A stretch of DNA of 27,261 bases from Raillietiella orientalis (GCA_036172245.1 JAYWIR010000074.1:372001-399261), one strand, 5' to 3'; shown: positions 1,133 through 21,709, numbered from the stretch's first letter. Program-made: numbers and translations. The notes: generated by a model from the sequence alone, not told the origin.

Positions 1133-1218
1133 TCCCTTCCCGGCCCTCCAAACTTTTTTTTTTTTGTGGTTTGTTTTTCTATTTTCTTTTATTTTTCTTT
1201 TTTCCCCCATCCCCCTCC

Positions 1219-1357
1219 ACTGCCGAGGAGAGCCACACCGGGCTGCGTCCCGGTGTCACGGCAGTTCCGGTATTGCGTGGCCGTCAGTGGGGCCTTGTAC
1301 CACGTTCTGTATTGACCGTTGAAATGTTTTTAATAAACGTCCCGGCGTATCCGGGTG
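1219..1357 (+). promoter_or_regulatory. Family-A 3' UTR structured element: nested stem-loop plus terminal AATAAA/hairpin
   Basis: ACTGCCG(1219-1225)/CGGCAGT(1259-1265) encloses ACACCGGG-ctgcgt-CCCGGTGT(1235-1256). Homologous structures at 6593-6717 and 21484-21610. Confidence 0.7.
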
Positions 1358-1374
1358 GCATCGCCGAATCCCTT
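1358..1374 (-). other. 17-bp target-site remnant between E1 and E2 (antisense of K-G-F-G-D-A codons)
   Basis: GCATCGCCGAATCCCTT; the reverse complement reads AAG GGA TTC GGC GAT GC. Same register as the flanks at 6718 and 21611. Confidence 0.7.
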
Positions 1375-1468
1375 GGCGAGTGGACGTGTGTTTCCTTCGC
1401 TCCCGAGTGAGTCGACAGGAAGCGGTTTTTTTCTATTGTTGTTTTGTGTGGAACATCGTTGGTGTCCG

Positions 1469-3222
1469 ATGGCAGCGATGCCTGCGGACACAACGATGGA
1501 GGTAGGTGTGGGGGAGGCTTGCCCACCCCCACAGCCTACAGAATCAGGGGCGTCCGCCCCGGAATCGCCCTCGCCGCTCAAGGCGAGGAGCTGGAGCGCC
1601 ATGGTGGCCGCGCCGAGCGCGGAAACCATGGCCGAGATGGCGGCCTACCGGGCAGCTGGGTACAAGCCCAGCTTGGTTTACCAGGTAGGCAATCTCTTTG
1701 ACGGGCGAACTGTACGCGCTTTTTCGAAAGCGCTGCAGAACGCAAACGTGTTGGAAAAGGACCTTGACGGTCTATCCGTGCTAAGCGGGGGTCAGCGCGT
1801 TGAGGTTGTCTGCAAGGACATCACCTTGGCGCAAAGCTTGATAACCACCCCGCTGAACGTGGACGGACGCAAGATCCTACCAGTCACGATGGACCGCTCC
1901 GTAGTGGTCCATCTGACAGGGATCACCAGCCGCATGACGCGGTCTGCGGTTGGTGATCAGTTAAGAAAGTACGGGGATGTTCACGCGCCTTGGCCAAAGG
2001 CCACAATCTTCGATGGCTTCGATAGCCTTTTCGGAGGGCAGGCCGCCGCGCGCGTGACCGTGAAGGAGAGTGGGCTTCCCCACAAACTAGAGGTCAATGG
2101 CGAAGTCGTAGACCTCTGGTACGTGGGGAAACTCCGCTTTTGTGGCTACTGCAATGCAGTAGGACACTTGCGCAAGCGGTGCCCGAACATTGTGTGCCAC
2201 TTATGCGGGGAGAAGGGCCACGTACGCCGCGTATGCCCTAAACGCCCCAATCCGGTGCCGCCTGCTGCAAAGAAAGCACAGGCAAAACGCGGTAAACTGG
2301 TCGAAAGACCAAAAAGAGATACTGGCCGGCAGCAGCCGCTAGCCCCTCTCCCTCCCACACAGGCGTCGGAAGAAAAACCCTCCGAAAACGCGGGAGTCCA
2401 AGACGGCTGGCAGCTGGTCAAGGCCAGGAAGGAAAAAAAGGTGCCCCCCGCGGAACCCGCGAAAGCGGTAAAAAAGACAGCCGGCAAGGCGAAAAAACCT
2501 GGGCCGCGCTCTAAGACCATGCGGGAGTGTACGGTAGCACTGGAGCGCATAGCCGTTCCCGAGATTGCCACCCGGGGCGACGAGCCTTCCCTCGCCGTTT
2601 CCGCCGCGCCCGAGGTTGGCGACGGCGAACCCTCTGTTTACACAGAGGGTGAGCCGCGCGACGCGCCGGTCGACACTGCGGACGCCGGGTTCACAAAGGC
2701 GGCGGAGGAGCTCGCGGCCACGCTGGCGGAGCGTGAGAACCCCTCACGCAAGGCCGTGCGAAGGCCGGCTCCCGCGAAAAAGGCCCCCACAGGTGAGTCG
2801 GACCTGGGGGCCGGAAGTGCATCCTCCTCCTCGGAGGCACCCCCAGGAAGTCGGGACGCAAGTCCCAGAAACCCAGGAGGCGCCTCCCCTCCACCAGCGA
2901 GGAGGAGAAGCAGGAAGGTAGCGGTAGCGTGGGAATCCCGGAGGGGGAACTCCCACGCTCGGAAGCCGTCGAGCCGGCCACCCCCATGGAGGAGTGTGAG
3001 CAGGGGGGCGAAGTCCTCCCTGCAGTCGCCGAGCCTGAACAGCCCGCCCCCATGGATGAGGGCCAACAGGTAGGCGCGACCCCACTTAAGGGTGACCCCC
3101 TCGACGCGCCGTTACCCATGGAGGAGGGGGACCAGGTGCACGCAGCGCCTGACCCTCCTCCTCCACCTAGCGTCCCGCCCCAACAGGTGGCGGACGCCGC
3201 ATCGCCATCTTCCCAGGAATAA
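1469..3222 (+). CDS. E2 ORF1, gag-like nucleic-acid-binding protein with two CCHC knuckles; probable frameshift near 2850-2920
   Basis: CGYCNAVGHLRKRC and CHLCGEKGHVRRVC. First ATG after the 5' end is at 1469. The C-terminus matching other copies (..SSQE*) lies in ORF 2929..3222. Confidence 0.85.
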
Positions 3223-6200
3223 CACCTGGGCTCGCCAGTCACCGTCGGATTCGCGCCGCCTGTTGGAACGTCAACGGGCTGCGCGACGACGGTAACAGGC
3301 GAGATACGGCCGACACCCTGCGTGAGCTCGACCTGGCCCTGCTGCAGGAGATCCACGTGATCACCGCGGCAGACGCCCAGGAGATCGAGACGATCGCGGG
3401 GGGTCGGCTGTATTGGCGGTGCTGCCTCCGCAACACCTGCGGGGTCGCGTTCTTCGTGAAGCCGGCCATCGACGCGGCCGTGAAGGGCGTGCGCTTCGAT
3501 GACGACGGTCGGGTCGGTCAGCTGATTCTCAGCTGGTCCGACTCGATCGAATTGATCGTCACGAATGTGTACGCCCCTAGCGGTAAACAGGGATACAGCG
3601 ACCGTACGAGGCTGCTGGATTCCATGATGCCCGACTGGCTGGCGGGGGACTGGACGCGACTCTCAGGTGCGAAGGAATACCTTCGCGAATACCTGAGAGG
3701 TGTCACGCTCCGGAATCTCCAGGACTGGGACCTTTTTAAGGAATCGGTCCGCGAGTTCTGTGAGCAGTTCCCCCTGGATCGCCTGCCCCCCGGATTCGGC
3801 GAGGGTGCTTGCAACCATCGGGCCTATTTACAGGCTCGTAGGTACGAGAGAACCCCTAATGTCCGTCGCCTGGCCGAGTACCGCGCCGGGGCCGAACGCC
3901 AAGCCTGGCAATCCGGGTCGGCCAGATTGCTGGACGACCAGGGCCGGGAATGTTCGTCCCCGGCGTCGGTACGGCATCTCGTGCGGAGTTTCTATTCCTC
4001 CCTTTACGCCAGGGAGCCCCCGGATCGAAACGCCTCTCGGCGCTTGCTTCCGGATGGCACCCCGGCAATAGGGGAGGAAGAGATGGAAAGCCTCGACGAG
4101 CCTTTTACCACCGGCGAAATTCTCGCCGGTATCAAAAGGCTCAAGAAACGTAAAGCTCCAGGGGAAGACGGCTTGCCCGCGGAGTTCTTTCAGAGCTTCG
4201 CGGAAGAGCTGGCACCCCTGCTGCTTAAGCTGATCAGGCTGATCCGAGACGAAGGCGATGTTCCCGCCTCGTTTCGGTCAGCCAGAGTGAGGCTCCTGCC
4301 GAAAGGGGGAGACCTCAGGGATTTAAAGAACTGGCGTCCGATCACGATCGTGAATACGGACGCCAAGTTGATCGCAGGGCTATGGGCTTCGCGTCTGGGG
4401 CAGGTGGCAGAATCCGTGATTTGCCCGGAGCAGACTTATGCTGTTCCCGGGCGAAGTATGGATGCCAACCTCTTCTTCGCAAGCACATGGGTGCACATGC
4501 AGAGAAGAGAGAAGAAAGGGATAGGGAAAGTCGGCAACCCCACATTGGGGCCGCCAGCCGGGCTGGGAAGGGACCCCCGGGCGGGGAAAGGGGCCCTAGC
4601 GCTCGCAGTCGATCTCCACAAGGCGTTCGACTGTGTAGACCAGGAACTTCTCTTGGAGCTCCTGGGTCGCATGGGCTTCCCACCCTCCCTGATTTCCTAC
4701 CTGCGCTCTTGCTGGCGGAATGCGATAATTACCGTCTATTTCAGCGGTCAAAAGGTGTATGGCGTGCCGGTGCGGCGGGGCATAAGGCAGGGAGGTAGCC
4801 TCAGCCCCCTGCTCTTCAGCACCTACTTTGAGTTGGTGCTGAGAGCGCACAGGGTGACTTTGGCCCCCTTGCCGAGCTCGTGCCCCGGCACGCCCGCCGT
4901 AGCAGCGTACGCCGACGATCTTCTGCTTTTGTTGCCAATGTCCACCCCGGCAAAGGCGGTCGGAGACTTCTTCGATCTGCTCAGCCGCGGGACCGGACTG
5001 CAGGTTAACAGGGTGAAGTCGTCGGTTGTGCCAATAGGTGCGGCGTGGGCAGGGCAGCAGGACTGGGTCCGTCTGGGGATCCCCACGGCGAGGTGCTTCA
5101 AGTACCTTGGTGTGCCGTTGGGGGACTACTCCCCTGCGGAAGCGTGGTCCAGCTGCCTCCAAAAAGTCGAGACGGCGATCGGCCCGTTCCTGGAAGGCGA
5201 GTTTCACTTGCCGGAACGGGCCGCGGTTTGGAACGCCTCCGCGGCCCCCATCCTCCGCCCCTTGCTTTTTGTTTGCCCCCCCACCGTGGAATCCAAGAAG
5301 AGGAAGAAGGACCTCCTCCGTATCGCCCTTTGGGGCAAGGGGAGGCCCCGAGTCCCACTGAAGGACTTGTGCGCTCTGCGTCGGGACGGCGGTCTTGGCC
5401 TCCTGACGCTGGAGCGCGTGGAGAAGCAGCTGCGGTGGCGAACCCTCGCCATCGCAGCGAAGATGTGGAGCACCCCTTGGTGCACTCCGGCCCGCCTCCT
5501 GGCCAGCCGTGTGTCGCGGTGCGATGGACTCGCGTCTTTTCTTCTGAGCCGTGGCCGGAAGATGCGAAGATGCGGCCTACTGCTCGGGCGCATGGCAACA
5601 TTGGCCAAGGAGAACAGCTGGATGGTTTGCTGCCCCGCGAACTCCCCCGCCTGGCTGGAGGAGAATATTGGAACGTGGGCAGTAGTCAACCAGAGAAGCC
5701 ACGATACGTGGAATCGTCTCCGATGCAGCTTCTACGCCCGCTGCACGCTGCGGAATCTCCTGGAGAGTCCAGCAAGATGCACGTGGGCAGAGACGACCTG
5801 CCTAGCTACGGCGCTACCCTTCCTAAGGAGGGCACTTCACAGCACTCGGACGCCAAGGTGGCAAGTCTCCTGCTGCATCGAGGGACGGGAGAAGTTGATC
5901 AGCGGCTGGACAACAGGAGAACTGGCCGACGCCTCGACCCCGAGCGTCCAGCCGCGAGGATTGTTAAGATGGGGCGAGCTGCTCGCCATCCTCAGGGATG
6001 AGCTGAAGTGGCCCCCGGTGATGAAAGAATCCAGGATCCTGCCCCTCAAGTGGCAAGATTCGGCGTTGCTTTTGTTGCACTGGGGTCTACCCTGCAACGC
6101 GCGTTTCTTCCACTGGACGAGGGGAGATGTGGATCCTGCGTGTGCCAGGTGCGGGGAGCGGGAGTCGCTTCCCCAGCTTATTGTGGATTGTGCTGCCCTC

Positions 6201-6515
6201 CGACCCCTCTGGGAACGGTTCGGGGCGACCCTAGTGCTCCCTACGGGCAGCACCCCCAGAGACGTTCTTCGGCCCCTCTTCGTGAAGGACGCACTGAAGC
6301 CAGCCGCAGCCATCGCAGCCTTGTGCTGCGTCCGTGGCATCGTGGGGGCATGGAGCGACGCCAACAACGAAGGAGTGGGTCCACAGGCGAGGGACGTCAT
6401 CCCGTATGCGAAACGCTTCTTGCAAAGAGCTGCCGGATGGCCACAACTGGGGAATATGCAGGCTGACCTCGAGGGCTTCGTTCGACGGATGGGCCCTCCC
6501 CACAGCGACCAGTGA
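3219..6515 (+). CDS. E2 ORF2: APE endonuclease (C-terminal half deleted), reverse transcriptase and CCHC-like domain
   Basis: CWNVNGL, LLQEIH, NVYAP; KAPGEDG, WRPIT, DLHKAFD, GIRQGGSLSP, YADD, YLG. The frame is open from ATA at 3219, upstream of the ORF-track start at 3357. Confidence 0.93.
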   Translation: MTPGLASHRRIRAACWNVNGLRDDGNRRDTADTLRELDLALLQEIHVITAADAQEIETIAGGRLYWRCCLRNTCGVAFFVKPAIDAAVKGVRFDDDGRVGQLILSWSDSIELIVTNVYAPSGKQGYSDRTRLLDSMMPDWLAGDWTRLSGAKEYLREYLRGVTLRNLQDWDLFKESVREFCEQFPLDRLPPGFGEGACNHRAYLQARRYERTPNVRRLAEYRAGAERQAWQSGSARLLDDQGRECSSPASVRHLVRSFYSSLYAREPPDRNASRRLLPDGTPAIGEEEMESLDEPFTTGEILAGIKRLKKRKAPGEDGLPAEFFQSFAEELAPLLLKLIRLIRDEGDVPASFRSARVRLLPKGGDLRDLKNWRPITIVNTDAKLIAGLWASRLGQVAESVICPEQTYAVPGRSMDANLFFASTWVHMQRREKKGIGKVGNPTLGPPAGLGRDPRAGKGALALAVDLHKAFDCVDQELLLELLGRMGFPPSLISYLRSCWRNAIITVYFSGQKVYGVPVRRGIRQGGSLSPLLFSTYFELVLRAHRVTLAPLPSSCPGTPAVAAYADDLLLLLPMSTPAKAVGDFFDLLSRGTGLQVNRVKSSVVPIGAAWAGQQDWVRLGIPTARCFKYLGVPLGDYSPAEAWSSCLQKVETAIGPFLEGEFHLPERAAVWNASAAPILRPLLFVCPPTVESKKRKKDLLRIALWGKGRPRVPLKDLCALRRDGGLGLLTLERVEKQLRWRTLAIAAKMWSTPWCTPARLLASRVSRCDGLASFLLSRGRKMRRCGLLLGRMATLAKENSWMVCCPANSPAWLEENIGTWAVVNQRSHDTWNRLRCSFYARCTLRNLLESPARCTWAETTCLATALPFLRRALHSTRTPRWQVSCCIEGREKLISGWTTGELADASTPSVQPRGLLRWGELLAILRDELKWPPVMKESRILPLKWQDSALLLLHWGLPCNARFFHWTRGDVDPACARCGERESLPQLIVDCAALRPLWERFGATLVLPTGSTPRDVLRPLFVKDALKPAAAIAALCCVRGIVGAWSDANNEGVGPQARDVIPYAKRFLQRAAGWPQLGNMQADLEGFVRRMGPPHSDQ

Positions 6516-6717
6516 TCCCTTCCCTGCCCTCCAACTTCTTTTTGTTTGTTTCTTTTTTATTTTACTTTTTGTCTCATCCCCATCCCCCTTCGCTGTCGGG
6601 GAGTGCCACGCCGGGCTGCGTCCCGGTGTCCCGACAGGTCCTGTGTTTACGGCCGTGGTAAGGCCTTGTACCACGCATGTAAAGTTTATTAATACACGCC
6701 CGGGGCGTACCCGGGTG

Positions 6718-7616
6718 ACAACGCCGAAACCTGGAGGGAGACGGTTCAGGGGAAACTGGTCGCAGAACTCGCGGACTGAGCTCTTCAAGTCGTCCCAGTC
6801 CGCGAGCGACTGCAGATGGAAGCCTTGCAGGAACGAGCGAAAATGTTGCGCTGCTCCTGCGAGGCGCAACCAGTCCCCTGGCAAACGCCACGCTGTGGAG
6901 GGTGGACCTCTACCGCGCGGGTGTATTTCTAGCACGAGCCGGGGATGGTCGGAAAGTTCGGATAGCACTGCCCCTCGATTTCCCACCCGCGAACACAGGT
7001 GGTTGTCGAGGAACATGTGGTCGATCCTCGTTTCCGTCCCGGCGTCACCGGCCAACAAGTTGCGCGCGTGCATGGCAGCGCACATCTCGTTGACCAGCTG
7101 TGCGCGAATGTCGGGCGCACCTGCCAGCAGGCGGACGTTAAAGTCTTCGGCAATGAGGTGCGCCTTTCGCATGTCTGCTTCGGCCAGCCAATCTCGCCGC
7201 AGGCCTTCGAAGAACGCAGTGCGTTCCCCGCGCCTGTGGCTCGTGCCGGGCGCGTACACGTTGGTCACGACGAGGACGATCGCGTCGGACCACTTGGCAA
7301 CAAGCTGCCCGATTTGACCTTCCCCGTCGAAGTGCACGTCGCGCAGCGCATTAACGACGGCTGGCTTCAGCATGAAAGCCACACCGCGGGTGCGGTCTCT
7401 CCCGGTTTGGTATACGAGCCGCCCGCCTGCGATCCGTTCGATTTCCTGGGCCTCCCCTGCGTGGAGCACGTGCGTCTCCTGCAGAAGCGCCAGGTCGAAG
7501 TCCCGCAGGCTGGCGGCCACTTCTCTCCTCTTGCCGTCGTCGCGCAACCCGTTGACGTTCCAACAGATTACGCGCAGTCGCCGGCAGGAGGAGAGTCCAC
7601 GTGTTGGTGTGTTTAT
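6718..7616 (-). pseudogene. E3 ORF2 APE endonuclease domain, truncated
   Basis: ORF 6231..7547 up to PPGFGVV. The remainder of that ORF is antisense read-through into E2. Confidence 0.88.
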
Positions 7617-9021
7617 TGTGCTTGCTTACCGTCCTCCGCCTGCTGTTCAGCAGGCGGGAGTTGTGTATCCATTGCGACGGGCTGTTGCTCGCAAGGAGGC
7701 GGTCCGTCGGTGGTTGTGGTGGTGGTTGGAGGATCCTGCTTGGCCAGGGACGTCTCCGGCAAGGAGTCGCGAGACCTCGCGGACATCGCCTCCCCGTCGT
7801 CGTGGTCCGACCGCATTTCCTCCTCCGCCGGTGGAGGTGCGGAGCGCCGCGGGTTGCCTACCTTGCGGCCCGCTTTGCGCTTCGGGAGAGCGACAGCCGG
7901 AGCCTTGCCGGCTTCGGCTTCGGACTCGGAAGTCTCCGGTCCTTTCGCCTCAGCCGGACGCCTCAAGGCCTTTTTCTGGGCCTTGGGAGGCTGCTGGAGC
8001 ATGGCTGCCAACTCTTCCGCCGCCTTGTTGAAGTCCCGGTCGTCGCTGCTCACGCTGGGCTCGCGACTTTCTCGCGGCGTCGGCGTTCGCGCGTCGGCGG
8101 CTTGAACAGCTGGCGTGACGTCACATCGCATCGATCCGTCAGCGGAGCGAGTATCGATCGCCGGCACGCGTTTGATGGCCACGCTGCACGCTTTGATTGT
8201 TGGGCGTGGCGCGACCTTCCCCTTGCCCTTCACCACTTTCGCCGGTGCGGGCGCGGTTTTTTTAACGATTTTTACTTTACGGGTGACCAGCTGCCAGCCT
8301 TTCTCGTCGGCAGTCTTTTCTGGGAGCTCCTGTACCGAGTCCCTTTCCTGCTGCGCGACTTTTGTCGGAGCCGACGGCTGATCCCCTTTTGTGGGGTTTA
8401 TTACTATTTTTGCCTTCCCTTCCTTCTTTTGCGGAAGTTCCGGCGTTGAAACGACGTTCATGGGGCACACCACTTTGGTGTGGCCCTTCGCGCCGCACGT
8501 TGGGCAAACCGCGTCCGGGCACCGCTTTTTCAAATGCCCGAACTACTTGCAGTTTCCACAAAATTTAGGTTTCCCCACAAACCAAATGTCGACGAACTCG
8601 TCGCCAATTTGGAGCTTGTGGGGAAGCTGTACGCTTTCTCGAAGCGTCACGCGCGCGCCTACTCGCCCACTAAATGCACCGTTCACTCCGAAGGTGTTGG
8701 GCTTTCTCCACATCGCGAAAACGCTTGCGTATTTTTCCAGTTCAACGCGGATGGCGTTCTCATCCATCCGCACTGTTGTCCCTGTTAGGTGGACCACATT
8801 GGTGTGGTCCACCGTGTGTGGGAGTAAATTCCTGCCCTCAAATTGTACGGGCGTGCAGAGCATCTTGTGGGTAAGAGCTGCATCCTTGCAGATGAGCTCC
8901 GCCATCTGCCCTCCGCTCCGTATAGAGAGGCAAAGAATTTCATGGTCGGCAATGCCCATCTTTTTGATGGCATTGCCGAACTTTCGCGCCCTTAACGAAG
9001 AATATAAATTTCCTACCTTGT
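7613..9021 (-). pseudogene. E3 ORF1 (5'-truncated, disrupted near 8540)
   Basis: ORFs 8543..9268 (3' part) and 7613..8533 together give ORF1 with zinc knuckles. Confidence 0.85.
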
Positions 9022-10700
9022 CTTCTCCTTGGCCAATGTTGCCATGCGCCCGAGCAGTAGGCCGCATCTTCGCATCTTCCGGCCACGGCTCAGAAGAAAA
9101 CACGCGAGTCCATCGCACAAGGACACACGGCTGACCAGGAGGCAGGACGTAGTGCACCAAGGGGTGCTCCACATCTTCGCTGCGATGGCGAGGGTTCGCC
9201 ACCGCAGCTGGATTTCCACGCGCTCCAGCGTCAGGAGGCCAAGACCGCCGTCTCGACGCGGAGCGCACAAGTCCTTCAGTGGGACTCGGAGCCTACCCTT
9301 GCCACAAAGGGCGATACGGAGGAGGTCCTTCGTCCTCTTCTTGAATTCCACGGTGGGAAGGCAAACAAAAAGCAAGGGGCGGAGGATGGAGGCCGCGAAG
9401 GCGTTCCAAACTGCGGCTCGTTCCGGCAAGTGAAACTTTTTTTCAAGGAACGGGCCGATCGCCGTCTCGACTCTTTGGAGGCAGCTGGATAACGCTTCCG
9501 CAGGGGAGTAGTCCCAGAACGGTACACCAAGGTACTTGAAGCACCTCGCCGTGGGGATTCCCAGACGGATCCTTTCCTGCTGCCCTGCCTACGCCGCACC
9601 TATTGGCACAACCGACGACTTCGCCCTGTTAACCTGCAGTCCTGTCCCGCGGCTGAGCAGATCGAAGAAATCTCCGACCGCCTTTGCCGGGGTGGACGTT
9701 GGCAACAAGAGCAGGAGATCGTCTGCGTACGCTGCAAGGGCGGGCGTGCCGGGGCACGAGCTCGGCAATGGGGCCAGAGTCACCTTGTACGCTTTCAGCA
9801 TCAACACAAAGTAGGTGCTGAAGAGCAGGGGACTGAGGCTATCTCCCCGCCTTATGCCCCGCCGCACCGGCACGCCATGCGCCTTGTGACCGCTGAAAGA
9901 TACGGTAATTATCGCATTCCGCCAGCAAGAGCGCAGGTAGGAAATCAGGGGGGAGAAAAGCCCATGCGACCCAGGAGCTCCAAGAGGAGTTCCTGGTCTA
10001 CACAGTCGAACGCCTTGTGGAGATCGACGGCGAGCGCTAGGGCCCCCTATCCCGCCCGGGGGTCCCTTCCCAGCCCAGCTGGCGGCCCCAATGTGGGGTT
10101 GCCGACTTTCCCTATCCCTTTCTTTTCTCTTCTCTGCAGGTGCACCCATGTGCTTGCGAAGAAGAGGTTGCAATTAATACTTCGCCCGGGAACAGCATAA
10201 GTCTGCTCCGGGCTAATTACGGATTCTACCACCTGTTCCAGACGCGAAGCCCATTGCCCTGCTATCAACTTGGGGTCCGTATTCACGATCGTTATCGGAC
10301 GCCAGTTCTTTAAATCCCTGAGGTCTCCCCCTTTCGGGAGGAGCCTCACTCTGGCTGACCGAAACGAGGCGGGAACATCGCCTTCCTCTCGGATCAGCCT
10401 GATCAACTTAAGCAGCAGGGCTGCCAGCTCTTCCGCGAAGCTCTGAAAGAACTCCGCGGGCAAGCCGTCTTCTCCTGGAGCTTTACGTCTCTTGAGCTTT
10501 TGATACCGGCGAGAATTTCGCCGGTGGTAAAAGGCTCGTCGAGGCTTTCCATCTCCTCCTCCCCTATTGCCGGGGCGCCATCCGGAAGCAAGCGCCGAGA
10601 AGCGCCTCGATCCGGAGGCTCCCTGGCGTAAAGGGAGGAATAAAAACTCCGCACGAGATGCCGTACCAACGCCGGGGACGAACATTTCTCGCCCTGGTCG
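9022..10700 (-). mobile_element. E4: internal family-A ORF2/RT fragment with frameshifts, highly similar to E2 about 3935-5614 in inverted orientation
   Basis: DQGEKCSSP...KAPGEDG...WRPIT...YADD...LAKE, with the same RT insert (RREKKGIGKVGNPTLGPPAGLGRDPRAG) as E2. Confidence 0.93.
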
Positions 10701-10748
10701 CGACAGCCGGAGCGTTGCCGGAGGGCTCCGGCTGTCGCTCTCCCGAAG
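10700..10748. repeat. Junction filler with a perfect 14-bp inverted repeat, matching E3 ORF1 sequence
   Basis: GCGACAGCCGGAGC(10700-10713)/GCTCCGGCTGTCGC(10725-10738). Matches about 7880-7911 in both orientations. Confidence 0.85.
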
Positions 10749-13472
10749 TTGCGTCCGCCGTGCACCGCGCAGTCAAGCGGTACTACTCGTCCTTGTACGC
10801 GGAAAAGCCCACGGAACGCAGTCTCTCCGATCTGCTTCTTACAACGGGCAACCCTGCTATCGACGAGGAGGAACGCGCCAGATTGGATTGGCGCTTCACG
10901 GCGGAAGAAGTATCATCTGCCATAGCGGGCCTGAAGATGCGTAAGGCGCCTGGGGAGGATGACCTGCCCGCGGAGTACTTTCAGTGCTTCGCGGCGGAGC
11001 TCGTCCCCTTGGTGCTAAGCCTTTCCTCGCTGATACGTGAGACGGGAGATGTTCCTGCTTCTTTCCGCTCAGCAAAGGTGCGGCTCCTGCCGGAAGGCGG
11101 TGATTTGCGCCACCTCCGCAACTGGCGTCCGATCACCTTGGTGAATTTGGAAGTCAAGTTGTTCTCCAGGGTATGGGTCGCGCGCCTAGGGAGAATCGCA
11201 GAGTCCTTGGTAAGTCCGGAGCAAACGTATGCTGTTCCGGGTTGTTCCATGGACGCGAATCTCTTCTTCGCGCGAACATGGTTCGAGCTGCAGCAGCGCG
11301 TGGCGCAGCAGAGCCAGGCAGCCGAAATCGCCGCAGTCAAAGGTGAGCGGCGGTGTTCAAGGCACGATCGATCGCCGGGAGCCTTAGCGGTCGCCGTCGA
11401 TCTCTGCGAAGCGTTCGACAGCGTAAACCAGGACCTCCTTCTGGAGCTTCTGGGACGCCTAGGCCTCCCGACGCATCTCATCGCCTACTTGCGCTCCTGC
11501 TGGCGATACGCGTTACGCTGTATCTCTTTCAGCGGGCGCCACGTATACGGCATTCTTATACGGCGGGGTATCAGGCAGGTAGACAGCTTAAGCCCCCTGC
11601 TCTTCAGCACCTCCTTTGAGTTGATGCTGAGGGCGTACAGGCTAACGCTGGCTACCCTGCCGAGCTCCTGCCCGGGAACCCCGGCCGTGGCCGCCTATGC
11701 TGACGACCTTCTCCTGCTGCTGCCCACGTCCACCCCGGCATCCAGGCTAGAGGACTTCTTCGAGCTAATTCGTCGGGGAGCGGGCCTGAGCGTCAACAGG
11801 ACGAAATCAACCGTTGTACCGATTGGCTCTACGTGGAAGGGGCAGTCCGACTGGATCCGCCTGGGGATTCCCACGGCCAGGTGCTTGAAGTACCTTGGCG
11901 TTCCCTTGTGCGCCTTCTGTCCAGCAGAAGCGTGGTCGGACTGCCTTCACAAGGACGAGACTGCTCTGGGCCCGTTCCAGGGCGGCAGGTTTCTCCTGTT
12001 GGAACGGGCCTTCGTGTGGAACATTTTCGTTTCCCCCCTCCTCCGTCCCCTCTTTTTTGTTTGTCCCCCTCCCTACTCGGCTAAGCGCCGGGCGCAACGC
12101 CTGTTGCGTAACGCCCTGTGGGGACCGGCGAGGTCCAGGATACACCTGAAGAACTTGGCGGCTCCTCGGCGTGAAGCAGGCTTGGGCATCTTGACGCTGG
12201 AGCGGATCGGACTGCTAGTGCAGTTCCGCATGCTGGCACTTTGTGCGCAGCTCTGCACTGCTCGCTGGTGTGCTCCAGCGCGGCTGCTGCTGCGGCACTG
12301 CACGGGTGGCGACGGTCTACGTTCGTTGCATCTGCGCACGGAGCGCGCCCAGAGAGGATTCGGCTTCCCTTTGAAGCAGCTCGCCACGCTTCTGGGAAAG
12401 CATGAGTGGATCTCCTGCCGGCCCACGAACTTCAACGCCTGAAGGCCGGAAGCCTTATCGTGCTAAGCAGCGCAGCAGGATGTGTCCCGTTTGGAACTCC
12501 GTTGCGTGAAACTTTCCCCATACTCTCCAGTGGGGGAGGTGCTGGAAGACCAGGATCAGTGGACACGCCTAGCCGCTACGCCAATCGCCAAAGCACTGTG
12601 TGCACTGATGGTGCGAGATGACAGTGATCTGCCGGCGAGGTGGGAGATCACTTGCGAAATCGCAAGCGAAACCCGACTGCTGGGTGCCTGGCGGACTTGC
12701 AAAGTGGCAGACGCTGCCACACCTTGCATTCTTGCAAAGCGGCTTCTCCAGTGGAGTGAGCTCCTCGGGGTGCCCAGCGATGAACTTGTGGTCCCTTCTG
12801 CGTGTTTGGACGCGACTCTCTTCCCCCTTCGCTGGATACAGGACGCTTTTCTGCTGATGCATTGAGGTTTGTACTGCAACTAGCAGGCGCACCTGATTTC
12901 CGGAAGAGTTGCTTCCCCGAACTGTGCCCAATGCGGAACGGTGGAATCGCTTACGCATTTGCTGCTTGAGTGCGGTGCCCTCCAGGATCTGTGGCGGCGG
13001 CTGTCTTTAGCGCTCCTGCACCCCGGACACACCGCACTGGATTGGATGCGCCGCTTCTACACGCGTGTCGGACTTTCTGTTGGAGCGGTCGTCGCAATCA
13101 TCTGCTGCGTCTGCGCCATTGTCAGGGCCCACCACGTATTGCAGATGCGAGCAGTTCCAACATCGGTCCCCGACACCGCAGCATGCAACCTGTAAATGGC
13201 TGCCGGGTGGCCACATCTTGGAGCAGAAGTGAGGATGGAGATCGTCGGCATTCACCGCCGGTTCTGAGAAGAGGAACGGTTAGACTGTATACCCCTGTGT
13301 CCGCCCTCCCAACCAATTTATTTATTCATTGTCCCACCTCCTCCCGTTCCAAACTCTCAGTGTGCTTGGACTGCGTTCCGAGAAATCCACTCCCCATTTT
13401 CTGTTCCCCTTGCCTGGGAACACAGTTCCCAGTTGATGTTATAATAAACGTCCCGGCGCAACCGGGTAATAA
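10749..13472 (+). mobile_element. E5: 5'-truncated family-B element (RT, CCHC, 3' UTR), with stop codons in the C-terminal part
   Basis: ORF 10658..12442 (WRPIT, DLCEAFD, YADD, YLG), then CAQCGTVESLTHLLLEC and IHRRF* at about 13267. Terminal AATAAA-CGT-CCCGG-CGCAA-CCGGG-TAATAA at 13443-13472. Confidence 0.93.
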
Positions 13473-14680
13473 ACGACAACGCTGCATTCTTTAATTGGCT
13501 CGCTTGCCTGCTGTTTTTTCTGGCGGTATGCGAGCTTTTTCTCCATCCTCCTCTCCTTCTTTGATTTTTTGGCCGTAGCCACCTGGCACCCAGGCTCCTG
13601 GCTTGTTCCCTCCACTTAATCGGCGTTGTTCGCCGGGGTCTCGGGTGAGGCCTGGGTCTTGGGCGCGGGTGGCACAGCAATTGCGGCAGCTTTTGCCGCC
13701 AGCCTTTTCTGCAGAAGCCGGGCGCGTTTTTTAAGGTTTCTCTTGGAAACCACCAGCAGTGCCTCTTTTGAGCACACCTTCCTCGTGTGACCCATTGTGC
13801 CGCATACTTGGCACTGCTCGTTGGGACTCCTCTTTTTGAGGTGGCCCGACGTATTGCAGAAGCCACAGTATTTCGGCTTCCCCACATACCAGAGGTCGAC
13901 GGTTTCGCCTCCGACCTTCAGTTTGTGGGGAAGAGTGCAGCCCTCCCGAAAGGTCACGCGCGCAGACGTAAGGCCGTGTTTGAGCCCCGTGTAGTCCTCG
14001 AAGGGACTAATTTTCGTCCACTGCGCGTGGATCATTTCATATTCTTCCAACACGGCGCGAACCTGTTCCTTGCGCATCCGCGCGTTAACACCCAACAGGT
14101 GGACCACCAAGCTGCGGTCCTCCGTAATAGGGAAGAGCCAGCGCGTCCCCATCACCACGGAAGTTTTAAGCAGTCGTTCCGCCAGCTCTGCTTGTTTGCA
14201 GATGACCTCAACGTACTGACCCCCGCTGCGGATGGTCATAGCGCTGAGATCCTCCTCTTTCACGCTCTTTCACATCGAGAGCGCGCATGCCCTTCGAGAA
14301 GGTGCGCGCGCTCTCTAAAGAATATAAATTGCCTACGTTGTAGAACAATGAGGGGTTGTAACGCTCCTCTACTTAGGCCGACAATTCCGCTGCGGCTGCA
14401 GGCGATGGCGACGAGACAACGGCGCTCCACGCCCGCGCTGCAGCGGGGACAGATTCTGTGGGGGCACATGCCCCCACCTCCATCGCCCCGGGGGGTGACG
14501 TTGCCGCCGCCTCCTAGCTCTCCATCGCCTCTGAAGGCGGCGTTTCCGCTGCCCTTTGGCCATCCCTGGTAATCGCGTCAGGCATCGCTGCCTGATCGAC
14601 CACCGAACCACACGACGCTTGCACTGGGGGAGACTTCCTGGCACGAGGAACACCGAGAAAACACGTCAACCCTGGAGCAC
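13473..14680 (-). mobile_element. E6: family-C element, intact 5' end and frameshifted ORF1; cut at the ORF1 IKECSVV motif by E5
   Basis: 5' end GTGCTCCAGGG, ATG at 14585, CGFCNTSGH and CQVCGTMGHTRKVC. Closely similar to E8 about 19240-20353. Confidence 0.92.
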
Positions 14681-16731
14681 GCAAGGCGTTCGATTGCGTA
14701 AATCAGGATCTCCTGCTGAAGCTCCTAAAACGTCTCTGTCTAACGGTGCACTTCGTAACGTATTTGCGCGCTTGCTGGCGCCACTGGCTCATTTCCATCT
14801 TTTTAACGGCTAACACGTGTACGGCGTGCCGGTGCGGCGGGGCATTAGGCAGGGCAACTGCTTAAGCCCGTTGCTCTTCAGCATCTTCTTTGAGATGGTG
14901 CTGTGGGCGTACAGGATGACGCTGGCCAACCTGCCCAGCCTTTCTCCAGGAACGCCGTCCGTGTCGGCCTATGCTGACGACCTGCATTTCCTCGTACCCA
15001 TGAGCACCCTGGCGTCCAGTCTCGAGGATTTCTTCTAGCTGATTCGCCGGAGAGCGAGCACGAGCGCAAACCGGAGGAAGAGCGTGGTCGTACCTATTAA
15101 TGCGGCGTGGTAGGGGCAGTCCGACTGGATCCGCCTGGGGATCCCTACCGCTCCGTCCACCCAATATCTGGGCGTTCCGCTGGGAAACATCAGCCCAGTG
15201 GAAGTGTGGTCGGACTGCCTTCGGAAGGCTACGAGTGCGCTGAGCCCGTTCCAGCATGGCAAGTTCCTCCTGTCGGAGCAAGTCGCGATATGGAACACCT
15301 TCGTTGCCCCCCTCTTGCGCCCCCTGTTTTTGGTTTGCCCGCCCCCCTACTCGGTAAAGCTCCAGTTGCACAGCCTATTGAATAACGCTCCGTGGGGACC
15401 TTCGAGGTCCAGCATACGCCTCAAACACTTGGAGGCGCCGCGTAGGGATGCTGGTTTGGGCATCCTGACGCTGGACAGAATCGAGCTGCAGGTGCAGCTT
15501 TGAATGTTGGCCATGTGCGCCAACCTTTGGTCCACTCCGTGGTGCGCTCCCGCGCGACCGCTTCTGCGGCGCTGCATAAGCAGCGATGGACTTCTGTCGC
15601 TGCAGCCGCACACGGAGCACCCCACGACAAGTTTCGGTTTACCCTTGAAACCCCTCTACCTGCTCCTGGCAGCCCAGGAATGGATCTCCTGCCGCCCAAC
15701 GAACTTTCAAGCTTGGCGGCAGGAACCGTTGTATGGCTGGGCAAAGCAGCATGATGTTTTCCTCCTGGAACTTCGTTGCGCTAACCTGTCCCCGTATTGC
15801 ACGTTGGACGAGGTGTGCAACAGCCAGGAGAAGTGGGCCCGCCTGGCCGTCAGGCCGCTCGCCGACGCACTGTCAGCCCTCAGGGCAAGAGATGATAGCC
15901 TCGATCCGACGACATGGGAGGTCGCCTGCACCATTGCAGGAGCAACACGACCTATCAGCGTTTGGAGGATTTGCGAGCTGTCAGACGCCGCCACGCCTCG
16001 CCTCATCTAGAAGGGACTCCTTCCGTAGACCGAACACTTCAGTGTGCCCCCCGAAGAACTTGTAGTCCCTTTCTCCTGTTTGAGCACTTCGGTGTTCCCC
16101 CTTTTGTGGAGGCAGGTCGTCATCATGCTGGTGCATTGGGGTTTTCACTGCAACCAGCGGACGAACCGTGTTTCCGAAGGAGTTGTCTCCCCAAACTGTA
16201 AGCGGTGCGGGAAAGTGGAAACTCTCCCGCACCTGCTCCTGGACTGCGGTGCCCTTCCAGCACTCTGGCGGAGGCTGGTCTGAGGTCTCCTGCACCAGGA
16301 AGACACCGCGAGGGACTTGATACGCCGCTTCTTTAAGCCAGGCAGCCTTTCTTTGGGTGCTGTCGTTGCAACTGTGTGTTGCCCCCGCGCCATCAACAAG
16401 GCCCACCGAGAGTTGAAGAAGCTGGCCATCCTTCGTCAGTCCACCAGATTAGCCAGCAGAAACATGTCGTCGGCTGCCGAATGGGCCCATCTGCTACAGG
16501 GCGTTAGGAGAGAGATCGACGGCATCCATCGCCTGTCCCCCGCCTTTCATATTTTTCTTTTATTTTTTTATAGTAGTGTATTTCTGGTCCCTTTCCTCCC
16601 GTTCCGGACTTTCGGCATACCGACCTACGTGTCGGGGTTACAACCTTCTTCCTCTCTTGTTTTCCCCTTTGTCCAGGAACCCTGTTCCCCGATAGTTTAC
16701 AATAAACGCCCTGGCGCAACTGGGTGATAAA
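14681..16731 (+). mobile_element. E7: degenerate family-B ORF2 3' half starting at RT motif KAFDCV, with intact 3' terminus
   Basis: KAFDCVNQDLLL, YGVPVRRGIRQG, AYADD, CKRCGKVETLPHLLLDC; many stops. Terminal AATAAA-CGC-CCTGG-CGCAA-CTGGG-TGATAAA at 16701-16731. Confidence 0.92.
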
Positions 16732-18583
16732 CAGCCGACACTACGCCATCGTGCACGTTCTGCCCGCTGCAAGTAATGTTGATGAGCGCGTCGCGCCAGC
16801 AGGAGCGCAGATAAACCACTGATAAGGCCGAGAAGCGCAAGCGTCCCAAAAGCTCCAGAAGGAGATTCTGGTCGACGCAATCGAATGGTTTCCGCAAGTC
16901 GATTGCGACCGCAAGGGCTCCCTCCCCCACCCGACCATCCAAACCATTGCCGGCGCACGCACCGAAATTCCGGCTGCGCACCAAGCTCCTTTCTTTTTGG
17001 AGCTCTAACCTGGTAGAAGTGTGGAACAGGTTAACCTCCATATTTCTCCCGGGAACAGCATATGCATCTTCCGGGCTGATGAAGATGTTTGCAACCCTTC
17101 CCAACCACTCTGCCGAAACCTTAGCTGTTAGCTTGGCGTCCGCATTCACTATTGTGATGGGACGACAGTTGTTCATGCTCCTCAGGTCTCCTCCCTTAGA
17201 GAGGAACCGCACCTTTGCCGAACGAAAGGAAGCGGGAACGTCACCTCTCTCGCGTATCAGCATGGTGTGTTGATGTACCAGGGATTAAGCTCAGCCGCGA
17301 AAGTTTGGTAAAACACCGCGGGCAGGCTGTCCTCATCTGGAGCCTTGCGCCTTTTGAGCTTTTCGATGGCCGAGAGGATCTCGTCCATCGTGGAAGCCTC
17401 GTCAAGGGTCTTTCTCTTCTCCTCTTTAATCGCTGGAGCGCCCTCCGGAAGCAAGAGTCGTAAAACGTTCCTCTCTAGAGGTGCCCTGGCATACATTAAG
17501 GAGTAGTAACTCCGCAGTAGGCCGCGGATTTGGGCGGTTGCTGAATGCTCCTGGCCCTGATCGTCCAGCACGCTGGCAGATCCGGACTGACAGGCTTGCT
17601 TCTCGGCTCCCGCTTTGTATTTTGTTAGCCTGCGGATGTCGAGGTTTCAGGCGTAACGACGGGCCTGCAGGTAGGCTCGTTCGTTACGGACCCCGGTCCC
17701 AAAACCCGTAGGTAGGCGGTGCAGAGGGAACTGGTCGCAGAACTCCTGGACCGACCGCTAGAAGCGGTCCCAATCCTGGAGTTTCCGCATCCTGAAGCTC
17801 CGTATGAACGTGCGGAGATGTTTCGCCGCGTCCGGGAGCTTTAGCCAGTCCTTTGGGAGATGCCACGCTAACAAGGGGCGCCCCTGTCGCGCGGATGGAT
17901 CTTGAGGACTAGCGGGCGACGGTCGGACAGCTCGCACGGTAGCTGGCCGCGCCTGACCACGCGAGGGCACAAGTGCTCGTCAAGACACACGTGGTCACTG
18001 CTGTCTTCCATCCCCGGTGCACTGGCCAACCATTTACAGGTGTGCAACGCCATGCACACCTCGTTGACCAGGTCACGCTTTGGATACTGCTTATCTGGTT
18101 TTAGGCGAACGTTGAAATTGCCTGCAACCAGATGGCCATTCCGCATTCCTGCTTCGGTCAGCCAGTCTCGCCGGATGGCAAGGAAAACTTTTTCCGCGCC
18201 CTCCTGGTAATCAGGTCCGCGCCGCTCGGTGTGTACACGTTCGTGACGATAAGATCGATCGTGTCAAACCACCTGAGAGTCAGCTGGCTGCCACGACCGT
18301 GATCGTCGAACCGCAAGCCTCGAGCCACGGCCTCGACGGCTGGTCGAAGCAGGTAGGCGACACCGCAACTACTCGATGTCCCACACCGATGCCACAGCCG
18401 CCCTCCATAGATGCGTTCGATCTCTTGTGCTTGTTCTGCAGAGATCACATGGATCTCCAGCAGCAGCGCAAGGTCGTAGGACTCCAGAAGGGCGGCCATG
18501 TCTTGTCTCCTGTCGGCGTCTGTCATGCCGTTCACGTGCCAAACGGCAATGCCCAGACGACGGCAGGAGTAGATTCCCGGCAT
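16732..18583 (-). pseudogene. E8 ORF2 APE plus RT N-terminal half, fragmented
   Basis: Pieces 18158..18583, 17868..18146, 17684..17866, 17257..17571 and 16697..17263. Confidence 0.85.
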
Positions 18584-20258
18584 TACTGCTGGAAAGATTG
18601 AGGTGTGGAAGAGGCCTCCTCCTGCGATGCGGGCGTGATGTCCATGAAGGTTTCGGCCTTCTCAGTCAACTGATGCACCTGATCGGCCTCCACCTCCTCC
18701 ATCCCCTCCATGTCCGCGCGTGGGAGTCTCTCGGGGGAAGGGTGCCGCAAGTTTCGCACGCTCATGGCACACTCGGTTGCGAAAGCCATCTCTTCCCCCT
18801 CGCCAAGGGACACGAGCTTCCTCGGCTTTGTCGACTCAAGTACAGCCTTCTTGCGGGGTGCCGTGGAAACAAAGGCTGCGCTTCCGGCCTCCACCTCGGA
18901 GTCAGAAGAGTGGGACTCCTGAGGGGAGGCCGGGCGCCTTACGGCCTTCTTGCCATCCTTGGAGAGTTCGGGCTGAAACCAGGCAGCAAGTTCCTCCGCG
19001 GCTCGCGCGAAGGCTACGTCATCGATGGTGGTGTCGATGACGGTCGCCGCCGCCGCCTCGCTCCCCTCGCTGTTGACAGAGTCAACAGAGGGGTTGTCGT
19101 CGGTAGCGGCGAGTTCTTCCTGGCAGCGTTCGGCAACATCGAGAACGGGTTTGACGACTACGCTGCACTCTTCAATTATCGCGCTACCCTGTTCTTTCTT
19201 CTTCTGTTGGTAGGCGATTTTTTTTCCCATCCTTCTTTCCTTCTTTGATTTTTTGGCTGTTGTCACTTGCCAACACTTTTTTGGCCGGCTCCCTCAACTT
19301 TTTGGGCGTTGCTCGCCGGGGTCTCGGGTGACGCCTGGGTCTTGGGCGCGGGTGGCACAGCCATTGCGGCAGCTTTCGCCGCCAGCCTTTTTTGCAGAAG
19401 CCGGGCGCGTTTTTTAAGGTTTCTCTTGGAAACCACCAGCAGTGCCTCTTTTGAGCACACCTTCCTCGTGTGACCCATTGTGCCGCATACTTGGCACTGC
19501 TCGTTGGGACACCTCTTTTCGAGGTTGCCCGACGTATTGCAGAAGCCACAGTATTGCGGCTTCCCCACATTCCAGAGGTAAACGGTTTCGCCTTCGACCA
19601 CGAGTATGTGGGAAAGAGTGCAGCCCTCGCGAGCGGTCACGCGCGCAGCCGTGAAGCCGTGTTGCAGCCATGTGTAGTCCTCGAAGGGACTAACTTTTGT
19701 TCACTGCGCGTGGACCATTTCGTATTCTTCCAACGCGGCACGAACCTGTTTCTTGCGCATCCGCGCGGTAACACCTAACAGGTGGACCACCATACTGCGG
19801 TCCGCCGTAATAGGGAAGAGCCAGCGCGTCCCCATCACCACGGAAGTTTTAAGCAGTCGTTGGGCCAGCTCTGCTTGTTTGCAGATGACCTCAACGTACT
19901 GACCCCCGCTGCGGATGGTCATAGCGCTGAGCTCCTCCTCTTTCAGATCGAGAGCGCGCACGCCCTTTGAGAAGGCGCGCGCGCTCTCTCATGTATATAG
20001 ATTGTCTACCTTGTAGAAAAATGAGGGGTTGTACCCCTCCTCTACATGTGCCTACAATTCCGCCGCGGCTGCAGGCGATGGCGCCGACACAGCGGAACTC
20101 CACGCCCGCGCTGCAGCAAGCTTTGCTTCTGTGGGGGCGGACGCTTCCACCCCTATCACTTCTGGGGGCGACGTTGCCGCCGCCCCCTGGCTCTCCATCG
20201 CCTCTAAGGGCGGCTTTGCCGCTGCCCCTTGGTCATCCATGGTGGTCGCGTTAGGCAT
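18583..20258 (-). pseudogene. E8 ORF1 (several frameshifts and stops)
   Basis: Pieces 20052..20408, 19701..19961, 19263..19640 and 18583..19266 are collinear with other ORF1s. Confidence 0.85.
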
Positions 20259-20353
20259 CGCTGCCTGATCGACCACCGAACCACACGACGCTTGCACTGG
20301 GAGAGACTCCCTGGCACGAGGAGCAACGAGAAAACAAGGCCTCCCTGGAGCAC

Positions 20354-21610
20354 AGAAGGGGTTCGACTGCGTGGAGAAGGAGCTACTGTAGGAGCTTCTG
20401 GGTCTCATGGGCTTCCCACCCTCTCTTTCCTCCTACCTCCGTACTTGCTGGCGGAATGCGTTGATCAAGGTCTCTTTCAGCGGACAACGTACGGCCTGCC
20501 GGTGCCGCGGGGCATACGGCAGGGCGATAGTCTGATTCCCCTGCTCTTCAGCACCTACCTTGAGATGGTGCTGAGAGCGTACAGGGTGTCTTTGGCTGGC
20601 TTGCCTAGCTCGTGCCCAGGCACGCCCGAAGTAGCTGCGTACGCCGACGATCTTCTGCTGATGTTGCCCCTGTTCGCCCCGGCAGTCGCAGTCGAGAATT
20701 TCTTCGATCTGCTAAGCCGTGGGACTGGGTTGCAGGTTAACAAGGAGAAGTCGTCGGTGGTACCGTTCGTTGCGACGTGGGATGGACGCCCTGACTGCAT
20801 CCGCATAAGAATCTCCACAGTCAGGTACCTGAAGTACCTAAGTGTCCCGTTGGGAAATTCTGCCTCGCAGAAGTCTGTTAAGGTCGCCTCCAAAAGGTAG
20901 AGATTGCATTATCAATCGGATCCAGGCTTCTCCCGCTTAAGAGGCAAGAGTGGGCACTGCTGCTGTTGCACAGGGGTTTACACTCCAACGCGCGCCGCTT
21001 CCTCTGTACGCGAGGAAGTGTAAGCTTTGAGTGTGCCAAGTGTGGGGAGCAAGAATCGCTTTCATATTTTCTAGTCGACTGTGCTGCCATCCGACCCCTG
21101 TGGTTACGGTTCGGGACGAACCTAGGGCTCGCAATGGGCAGCGCGCCCAGACACGTTCTTCGGCCCCTCTTCGTGCGGGACGCTCTGCCGTTTGCCGCAG
21201 CCTTCGCAGCTCTCTGCTGCATCCGGGGCATCGTGGCGGCCTGGAGCGACATTTGCGACGAAGGAGTGGATGCCAACGAGAGGGAAGTCATCCCGTATGC
21301 TGTGAGCTTCATGCGAAGAGCTGCAAGATGGCTCCATCTGGGACAAACGCAGAAGGACCTAGAGGGCATACTGCGAAGGATGGGCCCTCCTCCTAGTGGA
21401 TAGTGATCCCTTCTCCTCCCTCCAAACTCCTTTAGTTTTTCTTTATTTTATTTTTTTTTGTTTCCTCCCAAAGTCCCATCCACTGCCGAGGAGCGTGATG
21501 CCGAGCTCCGTCCCGGCGTCCCGGCATGTCCGGTATTGTGCGGCCGTTATTGAGGCCTCGTACTACGTATTTGTGGAGTTTATTAATAAAAGCCCAAGCT
21601 TACCCGGGTG
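20354..21610 (+). mobile_element. E9: degenerate family-A-like ORF2 3' part starting at RT motif KGFDCV, with an internal deletion near 20915 and an intact 3' UTR
   Basis: KGFDCVEKELL*ELLGLMGFPP, GIRQGD, YADD, CAKCGEQES, RRMGPPPSG*. The UTR is homologous to E1/E2 and ends CCGGGTG at 21610. Confidence 0.9.
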
Positions 21611-21709
21611 GAAACACCAAATCCCCGGTTCAGGCGGTGCACAGGGACCTCCTCGGAGAACTCGCGGACCGAGGCCTTCATGCGGTCCCAGTCTTGGAGA
21701 CTGCAGAGC
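21611..21709 (-). mobile_element. E10: 99-bp ORF2 remnant (post-APE region), host of both E9 and E11
   Basis: Reverse complement translates LCSLQDWDRMKASVREFSEEVPVHRLNRGFGV, homologous to E2 LRNLQDWDLFKESVREFCEQFPLDRLPPGFGE. Not in the ORF track. Confidence 0.88.

Follow-up and report, generated by a model that had tools for sequence, protein, structure and literature searches.

A family of L1-like retrotransposons that probably inserts at a fixed Gly-Phe-Gly codon site in the ORF2 of sister elements in Raillietiella orientalis

Three copies of a retrotransposon family, here called family A, end at the same nucleotide within the antisense coding sequence of other elements in a 27,261-nt window from Raillietiella orientalis (GCA_036172245.1 JAYWIR010000074.1:372001-399261), where the window denotes the whole stretch of DNA analyzed and is the only sample. 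It contains only related retrotransposons that lack long terminal repeats (non-LTR elements), about twelve L1-like element pieces in alternating orientation as found by tblastn with the two proteins of the full-length copy A2 as probes, and its G+C content is 55-65% throughout. All six element 3' ends and all four full-length 5' ends adjoin other elements, so that the window is a nested cluster made of long interspersed elements (LINEs) only, and at each of the six 3' ends the orientation is antisense to the adjoining element. The family A junctions are a real feature, and their nature is probably site-directed nesting. With moderate confidence we take family A to be a target-specific L1-like LINE of the apurinic/apyrimidinic endonuclease (APE) type that homes into the second open reading frame (ORF2) of sister elements.

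The pattern CCGGGTG-N5-RCCRAAWCC (CCGGGTGNNNNNRCCRAAWCC) matches the window three times, at 1351-1371, 6711-6731 and 21604-21624, all on the + strand, and is absent from 100 dinucleotide-preserving shuffles. Either half of it is near chance by itself (seven matches of RCCRAAWCC with 2.3 expected, eight of CCGGGTG with 5.6 expected), and the linkage of the two halves is therefore the non-random part. The junctions are named J1 (at 1358), J2 (at 6718) and J3 (at 21611). To the left of each lie the homologous ORF2 C-terminus and 3' untranslated region (UTR) of family A, 69-75% identical between copies, and to the right lies the antisense ORF2 of another element. All three family A 3' ends thus meet antisense ORF2 at one fixed nucleotide and in one orientation, as the initial annotation had proposed from the sequence of the window.

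Three families were recognized by nucleotide identity. Family A comprises A1, A2, A3 and E4 (69-93% identical), and E11 probably belongs to it as well; family B comprises E5, E7 and E12; family C comprises E6 and E8, which are 85-91% identical over 100-300 nt inside their 5' ends. E3 is close to none of them, with 65% identity to A2, 62% to E8 and 61% to E12 in the ORF2 N-terminus. The features on both sides of the three junctions are the following, with positions in amino acids (aa) for the proteins.

A1, 2..1357, + strand: family A copy cut by the window start; ORF2 open from aa 737 to the end (376 codons), 3' UTR and terminal hairpin ending in CCGGGTG (tblastn and alignments).
A1 tail, 1358..1362, + strand: GCATC, whose last C may be a host base.
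h1, 1363..1374, - strand: host remnant GCCGAATCC (antisense of GGATTCGGC, Gly-Phe-Gly), then CTT.
A2, 1375..6717, + strand: full-length family A copy; 5' UTR starting with GGCGAGTGGACGTGT, 3' UTR ending in CCGGGTG.
A2 ORF1, frame 1337-3073, first ATG at 1469, + strand: with a CCHC knuckle.
A2 ORF2, 3171-6515, + strand: 1114 codons, open; endonuclease/exonuclease/phosphatase domain, reverse transcriptase (RT) and C-terminal cysteine motif.
A2 tail, 6718..6722, + strand: ACAAC.
E3, 9019 to 6723, - strand: host; its sequence spans ORF1 aa 116 through ORF2 aa 210 and breaks off right after GGTTTCGGC.
A3, 20351..21610, + strand: family A copy that starts at ORF2 aa ~481 and reaches the 3' end, with aa 652-954 deleted internally; E8 has removed its 5' part.
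A3 tail, 21611..21615, + strand: GAAAC.
E10, 21707 to 21616, - strand: remnant of a host, 92 nt long; covers ORF2 aa ~180-210 with 31 open codons and ends in GGATTTGGT.
E11, 21710..22800, + strand: A-type element with full 5' end GGCGAGCGGACGTGT, shortened ORF1 and ORF2 aa 10-81; cut by the 3' end of E12.

Long host homology had been claimed to continue into the flanks of J2 and J3. This is correct at 6723, where it extends over 2.3 kb to 9019, but not at 21616, where it covers only 92 nt, to 21707. At J1 the host homology is only 9-12 nt (1363-1374) and is followed by the 5' end of a new element.

Three uninterrupted homologues cross the junction point, and each contains the Gly-Phe-Gly (GFG) site in an unoccupied state.

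A2 own copy, 3792..3800, + strand: GGATTCGGC, ORF2 aa 208-210; fits the consensus.
E8, 17698..17706, - strand: CCCAAAACC on the + strand; not fitted by RCCRAAWCC.
E12, 25839..25847, - strand: TCCGAAGCC on the + strand; not fitted by RCCRAAWCC.

The uninterrupted hosts read ...LP.GFG[E/T]G..., the last Gly codon being followed by GAG or ACC. Aligned with them, the occupied hosts are broken directly after GG(A/T)TT(C/T)GG(C/T), at a codon boundary, to within 1 nt; one base is ambiguous, since the tail ends in an invariant C that could instead represent the next G of the host. The residues DA, VV and V, which the initial annotation had read as host sequence after GFG, derive from the guest tail. 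About 70 residues separate the site from the end of the endonuclease domain, and the part that aligns to residues 391-509 of human ORF2p lies beyond it. GFG is absent from the four distant homologues that align across the region (five were included), and within the nest its surroundings show moderate conservation only; the address is thus private to these elements. The idea that ORF2 is conserved most strongly at the target was rejected, since windows that end at the site or immediately before it have ranks of 316-693 among 1863.

The five nucleotides between the two half-motifs had been taken for a spacer of fixed register, and are most likely the guest's own short A-rich tail. None of the six element 3' ends has a poly(A) or simple-repeat tail; each carries only 4-7 nt of A-rich sequence after its hairpin, and in the 5-nt stretches after the six ends 19 of 30 bases are A against a background of 19%. 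The three family B ends carry such a stretch too, although the flanks beyond it are unrelated to one another and to GFG, and for this reason the stretch is assigned to the element.

E5, + strand: family B; 3' end at 13443..13474, terminal motif plus tail ATAAAC; adjoins antisense ORF1 (aa ~402) of E6.
E7, + strand: family B; 3' end at 16701..16733, terminal motif plus tail ATAAACA; adjoins antisense ORF2 (aa ~530) of E8.
E12, 23154-26759, - strand: family B, nearly complete, with full endonuclease and RT; 3' end at 22801..22831, terminal motif plus tail AGAAA; adjoins antisense ORF2 (aa ~81) of E11.

All six 3' ends have AATAAACGYCC.GGCG..ACCGGGTG in common, with small indels in A2 and A3. The terminal motif is defined as AATAAACGYCCNGGCG..CCGGGTG followed by the short A-rich tail, and four of the six ends are recovered by pattern with at most three mismatches, against none expected. 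A terminal hairpin (CC.CGG / CCGGG) follows AATAAAC at all six ends, with five predicted pairs of which three are kept in all of them, and this fits an element that is recognized by its 3' structure. Several further stems upstream are common to the family A 3' UTRs; the 3'-end regions are 1215-1362, 6590-6722, 21480-21615, 13330-13475, 16600-16733 and 22801-22965 (- strand). A target motif shared by families A and B was considered and rejected, as only the E7 site (GTCGGC^) resembles TTCGGC^ while those of E5 and E12 do not. A comparison with Rfam returned three matches up to E = 1, all microRNA and far below the gathering score (best 28.9 against 83 bits), and no ribozyme or other Rfam family at the element 5' ends.

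The guests have separate ancestries. Proportions of synonymous and nonsynonymous differences (pS/pN) are 0.48/0.19 for A1-A2 (376 codons), 0.58/0.26 for A1-A3 (158 codons) and 0.38/0.21 for A2-A3 (160 codons), with no stops, and the resulting pN/pS of about 0.4-0.55 denotes purifying selection. On these values at most about 30-46% of the synonymous distance among the guests can post-date the death of the copies. In 2000 simulated trials 378 codons stayed open in 3.4% at 8% random change, or in 1% at 12%. The low pN/pS, together with frames that neutral decay would rarely leave open, indicates that the guest lineages separated while they were still active.

The hosts of J2 and J3 have separate ancestries too. 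The ORF2 part of E3 has one stop in 306 codons (at codon 5) and ratios of nonsynonymous to synonymous divergence (dN/dS) of 0.45, 0.52 and 0.30 against A2, E8 and E12, respectively, and the 31 codons of E10 contain no stop and have a pS higher than pN in each of the four comparisons made. Judged by these codon patterns, the hosts are real elements and not carried flanks. E10 matches E3 at 59 of 93 positions and the unoccupied copy of A2 at 69 of 93, the closest of those compared, and E3 matches the A2 copy at 68 of 93. The sites common to exactly two of the three number 5 for E10 and E3, 15 for E10 and the A2 copy, and 14 for E3 and the A2 copy; quartets with E12 as the fourth taxon favour the pairing of E10 with the unoccupied copy by 6:2:1. 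As aligned, E3 and E10 are non-sisters. Since an occupied, dead copy cannot beget unoccupied, active ones, J2 and J3 would be separate insertions, for which the support is good rather than conclusive. Host ancestry thus does not mirror guest ancestry at J2 and J3, and the earlier proposal of independent insertions stands for these two; it does not stand for three different hosts, the host of J1 being just 9-12 nt long.

J1 may have a history of its own. A2, which alone has both of its flanks in view, is flanked by CGCCGAATCC (h1 plus base 1362) on the left and CGCCGAAACC on the right, 9/10 identical, and the two may be a target-site duplication of A2, in which case J1 would be a second hit on the host of J2. 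Beyond the host scrap at J1 (9-12 nt) and at J3 (92 nt) stands a full A-type 5' end, GGCGAG[T/C]GGACGTGT, a leader conserved in all four full-length 5' ends. Both full-length A-type 5' ends thus follow closely on an occupied GFG site, at distances downstream of about 10 nt and about 92 nt, and two head-to-tail A-A pairs with a GFG-bearing scrap between them can be read in the window, A1-h1-A2 and A3-E10-E11. A full-length A-type insertion at GFG would duplicate part of its target, about 10 nt in the case of A2 and about 92 nt in that of E11; the upstream duplicate would keep the target intact, and a later family A copy (A1, A3) would strike that duplicate. J1 and J2 would then lie in the same host copy, and four GFG-directed events would have taken place in two hosts. 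The other half of the host is not visible; the window starts inside A1, and the order of elements breaks at about 10700. Double insertion that leaves tandems with a target duplication in the joint is described for R1 and P elements in the available part of one account (PMC5932611).

The route that we infer begins with a nick in the sense strand of the resident element, at 5'-GG(A/T)TT(C/T)GG(C/T)^ to within 1 nt, which would fall in the linker between endonuclease and RT and would be made by a sequence-specific APE-type endonuclease, as in R1, TRAS1 and Tx1L. The 3'-OH at the nick would prime reverse transcription of family A RNA, whose 3' end would present the conserved hairpin (CC.CGG...CCGGGTG) and an A-rich tail of 4-5 nt. 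A break of the second strand 10 to about 90 nt further on would produce the target-site duplication and re-create the target upstream of the new copy. Because priming would occur at a sense-strand nick, the guest would always be antisense, and the host would keep only its 5' side at the guest 3' end.

The identity of the cutting protein is a matter apart. The ORF2 of A2 has an in-frame loss of about 100 aa near 3640, between two DWL motifs (compare E3 6884-7182); its endonuclease matches only positions 3-114 of the 225-position Pfam profile, and the GDFN and SDH blocks are lost in the alignment. A2 alone among the family A copies has a 5' half, and as the catalytic half is gone from it, no family A nuclease can be named from the window. 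E4 is 93% identical to A2, which shows that the A2 lineage was active recently. The loss of the nuclease implies that A2 was placed by a nuclease supplied in trans, or that the address was read in some other way.

Several points weigh against site-directed homing of family A. There are three junctions only, in one 27-kb window, and since the host of J1 may be that of J2, at most two hosts are clearly independent. The drop in identity from guest to host between J2 and J3 speaks for separate insertions but is modest, from 73% (217/296) to 63% (59/93), and the host stretch is short. A2's own GFG site is empty though it fits the consensus, and A2, the sole family A copy with a 5' half, is without the catalytic half of its endonuclease. 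Target-site duplication stands as a candidate only: the one around A2 has one mismatch in ten, and no element has both flanks in one recognizable host. The 3' ends of family B occupy three sites elsewhere, so that the nest as a whole does not share the choice of site. Conservation is no more than moderate in the 30 nt before the nick, at rank 420 of 1863 windows.

A second fixed junction was found in family C, where two 5' ends meet the same host nucleotide in the RT, before the CAC of ...VDL|HKAFDCV....

E6, - strand: ORF1 part, family C; 5' end at 14677 (region 14630..14720, joint 14677|14678), meeting antisense E7 just before the CAC of the DLHKAFD codons.
E8, - strand: from ORF1 to ORF2 aa 530, family C; 5' end at 20350 (region 20300..20395, joint 20350|20351), meeting antisense A3 at the same host nucleotide as in E6|E7.

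On the guest side the two loci are identical at 91/100, 173/200 and 254/300 positions, and on the host side E7 and A3, of families B and A, agree at 54/100, 120/196 and 190/296. Such a sharp step in identity from guest to host shows two separate family C insertions into unrelated hosts at one site. On this comparison, the family C joints are independent support that elements of the nest choose defined positions in each other. A wider proposal would make the nest a closed guild, in which several L1-like lineages home antisense to their own codon-level ORF2 addresses in sister elements; family A may use the GFG codons in the endonuclease-RT linker and family C the His codon of DLHKAFD in the RT. 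The addresses might be read partly through pairing of read-through RNA, because the endonuclease-deleted A2 landed on the exact nucleotide. We hold this proposal to be rather doubtful as a whole.

Pairing of RNA with the target could also account for family A by itself. Read-through transcripts of copies sited at GFG would carry a 3' extension (the tail plus GCCGAAWCC...) that pairs with GFG sense strands elsewhere, any nick or free end would serve as primer, no special endonuclease would be needed, and the process would perpetuate itself. Read-through assists precise initiation in R1 and SART1. The position of A2 on the exact site, although the C-terminal half of its endonuclease is lost, speaks for such RNA-guided homing, as do tails that look lineage-specific, as if copied from a source copy. 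The 3' UTR, however, has no stretch that pairs with the target (no 8-mer at any of the three junctions and a single 7-mer in total, with about one expected). Because the 3' UTR holds no guide, the explanation rests wholly on read-through RNA, none of which was observed, and A2 is accounted for just as well if an intact family A copy elsewhere provided the nuclease in trans. We consider it unlikely.

Somewhat less probable still is that there was never any site preference, and that the copies, since drifted apart, all descend from one old junction through segmental duplication, ectopic recombination, gene conversion or the 3' transduction of its flank. The divergence of guests (~25-30%) and hosts (~37%) is of the same order, the nest has been rearranged, with its order breaking at about 10700 at a 14-nt palindrome, and flanks carried along could explain the short scraps at J1 and J3. 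Against this, the guests diverged under selection with their frames open, E3 holds 2.3 kb of an element that was functional until recently, E10 falls with unoccupied copies and not with E3, and the host lengths differ (about 10, 92 and 2297 nt).

It is very improbable that the junctions arose by template switching, with a polymerase that pauses after GFG during synthesis of the host sense strand and jumps to the 3' end of family A RNA, leaving chimeras of host sense and guest antisense without any nick in resident DNA. This would predict the polarity from host 5' side to guest 3' end that is seen at all six 3' junctions, as well as the absence of the other half of the host beside the guest, which was found at none of the visible junctions. 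It requires, however, that the polymerase pause at precisely the same nucleotide while 37% of positions differ between the hosts; E3 is itself 5'-truncated and not a complete new insertion, and ordinary nesting also accounts for the zig-zag order to the right of E5. False joins by the assembler are hardly credible: the region consists of repeats only, and in one public run containing part of the stretch only 19 of 611 aligned contigs are at least 99% alike, but guest end and host have no common sequence to mislead an assembler, and the junctions differ at about 25% of positions with the breakpoint unchanged.

That public run contains 38% of the sampled words. When its contigs were aligned to a 20-kb stretch that left out J1, 387 of the 611 were less than 90% alike, and nothing was seen at J2 or J3 among the matches listed. 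Joints of 16750 with 20494-20514 in the same run were given no weight, the simplest account of them being RT copies without interruption whose mapping was spread over two homologous elements. In protein searches A2 ORF2 had six matches, one of them close, the close matches being given as P0001 at 63-67% and P0008 at 64%; an exhaustive protein search gave only three matches below 1e-30, and a protein search with the frame spanning the junction, from host ORF2 into the guest, found no match. No relatives were found in metagenome contigs by a protein-profile scan, nor in genome-contig and viral-contig collections. Two loci matching the 3' terminal motif were dismissed as chance-like, with no family-like 3' UTR before the motif and no tail after it.

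By their domains and by matches in PDB, the elements are APE-type L1-like non-LTR retrotransposons. The AP-endonuclease is found in the ORF2 N-terminus, matching the Pfam Exo_endo_phos profile at positions 2-223 of 225 in E12 (E 6e-10), and that of E3 is complete, with DFNV and SDH blocks present. RVT_1 follows the endonuclease with E values of 7e-22 (A2), 4.5e-17 (E5) and 3e-19 (E12), and in the ORF1 of A2 zf-CCHC reaches 23.7 bits, the cutoff being 20.8. All five PDB matches are to LINE-1 ORF2p chains (8uw3 and others; best E 1.4e-18), the closest proteins of solved structure. Two in-frame stops, at 25356-25358 and 24483-24485, interrupt the ORF2 of E12. The ORF1 of E11 is without the stretch matching A2 ORF1 aa ~121-398, the zinc-knuckle region included, although its A-type 5' leader is full, and E11 is possibly a shortened, non-autonomous form.

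One further element completes the inventory.

E4, 9023-10700, - strand: A2-like fragment, ORF2 aa ~256-816.

The joint of E4 with E3, at about 9019-9023, is the sole joint in the same orientation that was observed. A perfect 14-nt palindrome, GCGACAGCCGGAGC ... GCTCCGGCTGTCGC, lies at 10701-10745 in the head-to-head joint of E4 (-) and E5 (+), both of which begin there at about ORF2 aa 256-257; the joint is a possible rearrangement scar. A single simple nesting order for the whole window was tried and abandoned, since it breaks at about 10700, where the A2-like E4 and not the missing half of E6 stands to the left of E5.

If family A does home into its sisters, the nucleotide-level address offers a testable mechanism for how new LINE copies find old ones, and the head-to-tail pairs would be explained as repeated hits on a regenerated target. 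The coding sequence of relatives, read antisense, would join the short list of site-specific LINE targets. Co-resident LINE lineages would be in direct conflict, each hit separating the nuclease of the host from its polymerase. Nests of the LINEs Zepp and ZeppL mark the presumed centromeres of several green algae, and for these the way in which new copies reach old ones is given only as the targeting of existing copies; if the closed-guild proposal were true, mutual homing alone would build and renew LINE-only, centromere-like clusters, while the lineages kill each other's copies. Sequence-specific APE-type LINEs are also of practical interest as tools for targeted integration.

In its arrangement the window resembles the nests of Zepp and ZeppL, L1 elements of green algae that form nested, GC-rich clusters of LINEs only by targeting existing copies, as stated in the available portions of four papers (PMC3446292, PMC8226300, PMC9940879, PMC11005252). 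The nest described here is likewise L1-type, LINE-only and GC-rich and spans 27 kb at about 56-64% GC; the Zepp-like clusters of Coccomyxa measure 1.5-42 kb at about 61% GC in the sections at hand (PMC3446292). The Zepp tail is listed as (A)n in one table (PMC3747384), whereas the A-rich tails of the elements here measure 4-7 nt; the same table records L1 families of green algae that have no repeat tail. Unlike what is described for Zepp, all six 3' junctions of this nest have the antisense orientation, and family A is joined at a single nucleotide position. The available passages of the Zepp and ZeppL literature name no insertion site, the original Zepp descriptions lying outside that coverage.

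In its way of working, family A appears to match the target-specific APE-type LINEs. Among these, R1, TRAS1 and Tx1L, the last inserting into Tx1D, have endonucleases with a specificity of about 10 bp, and that of Tx1L recognizes about 10 bp around the bottom-strand cut, according to excerpts of one study (PMC1919474). With R1, TRAS1 and SART1 family A shares insertion at the same nucleotide and in one orientation into a multicopy target (PMC5932611, PMC1919474, both in their available parts). R1 also forms tandems by double insertion, with a duplicated piece of target in the joint (PMC5932611, same portion), and the head-to-tail pairs of family A may be of this kind. The targets of R1, TRAS1 and SART1, however, are ribosomal DNA or telomeric repeats, and the elements here are closest, among solved proteins, to human L1 ORF2p. 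Tx1L of Xenopus resembles family A in being a LINE that inserts specifically into a different mobile element; Tx1D is an unrelated DNA transposon, whereas the target of family A is the coding sequence of a sister LINE, possibly of its own family, entered antisense. The new points are the coding sequence of a sister, perhaps even its own, element as the target, the antisense insertion, and a site at a codon boundary.

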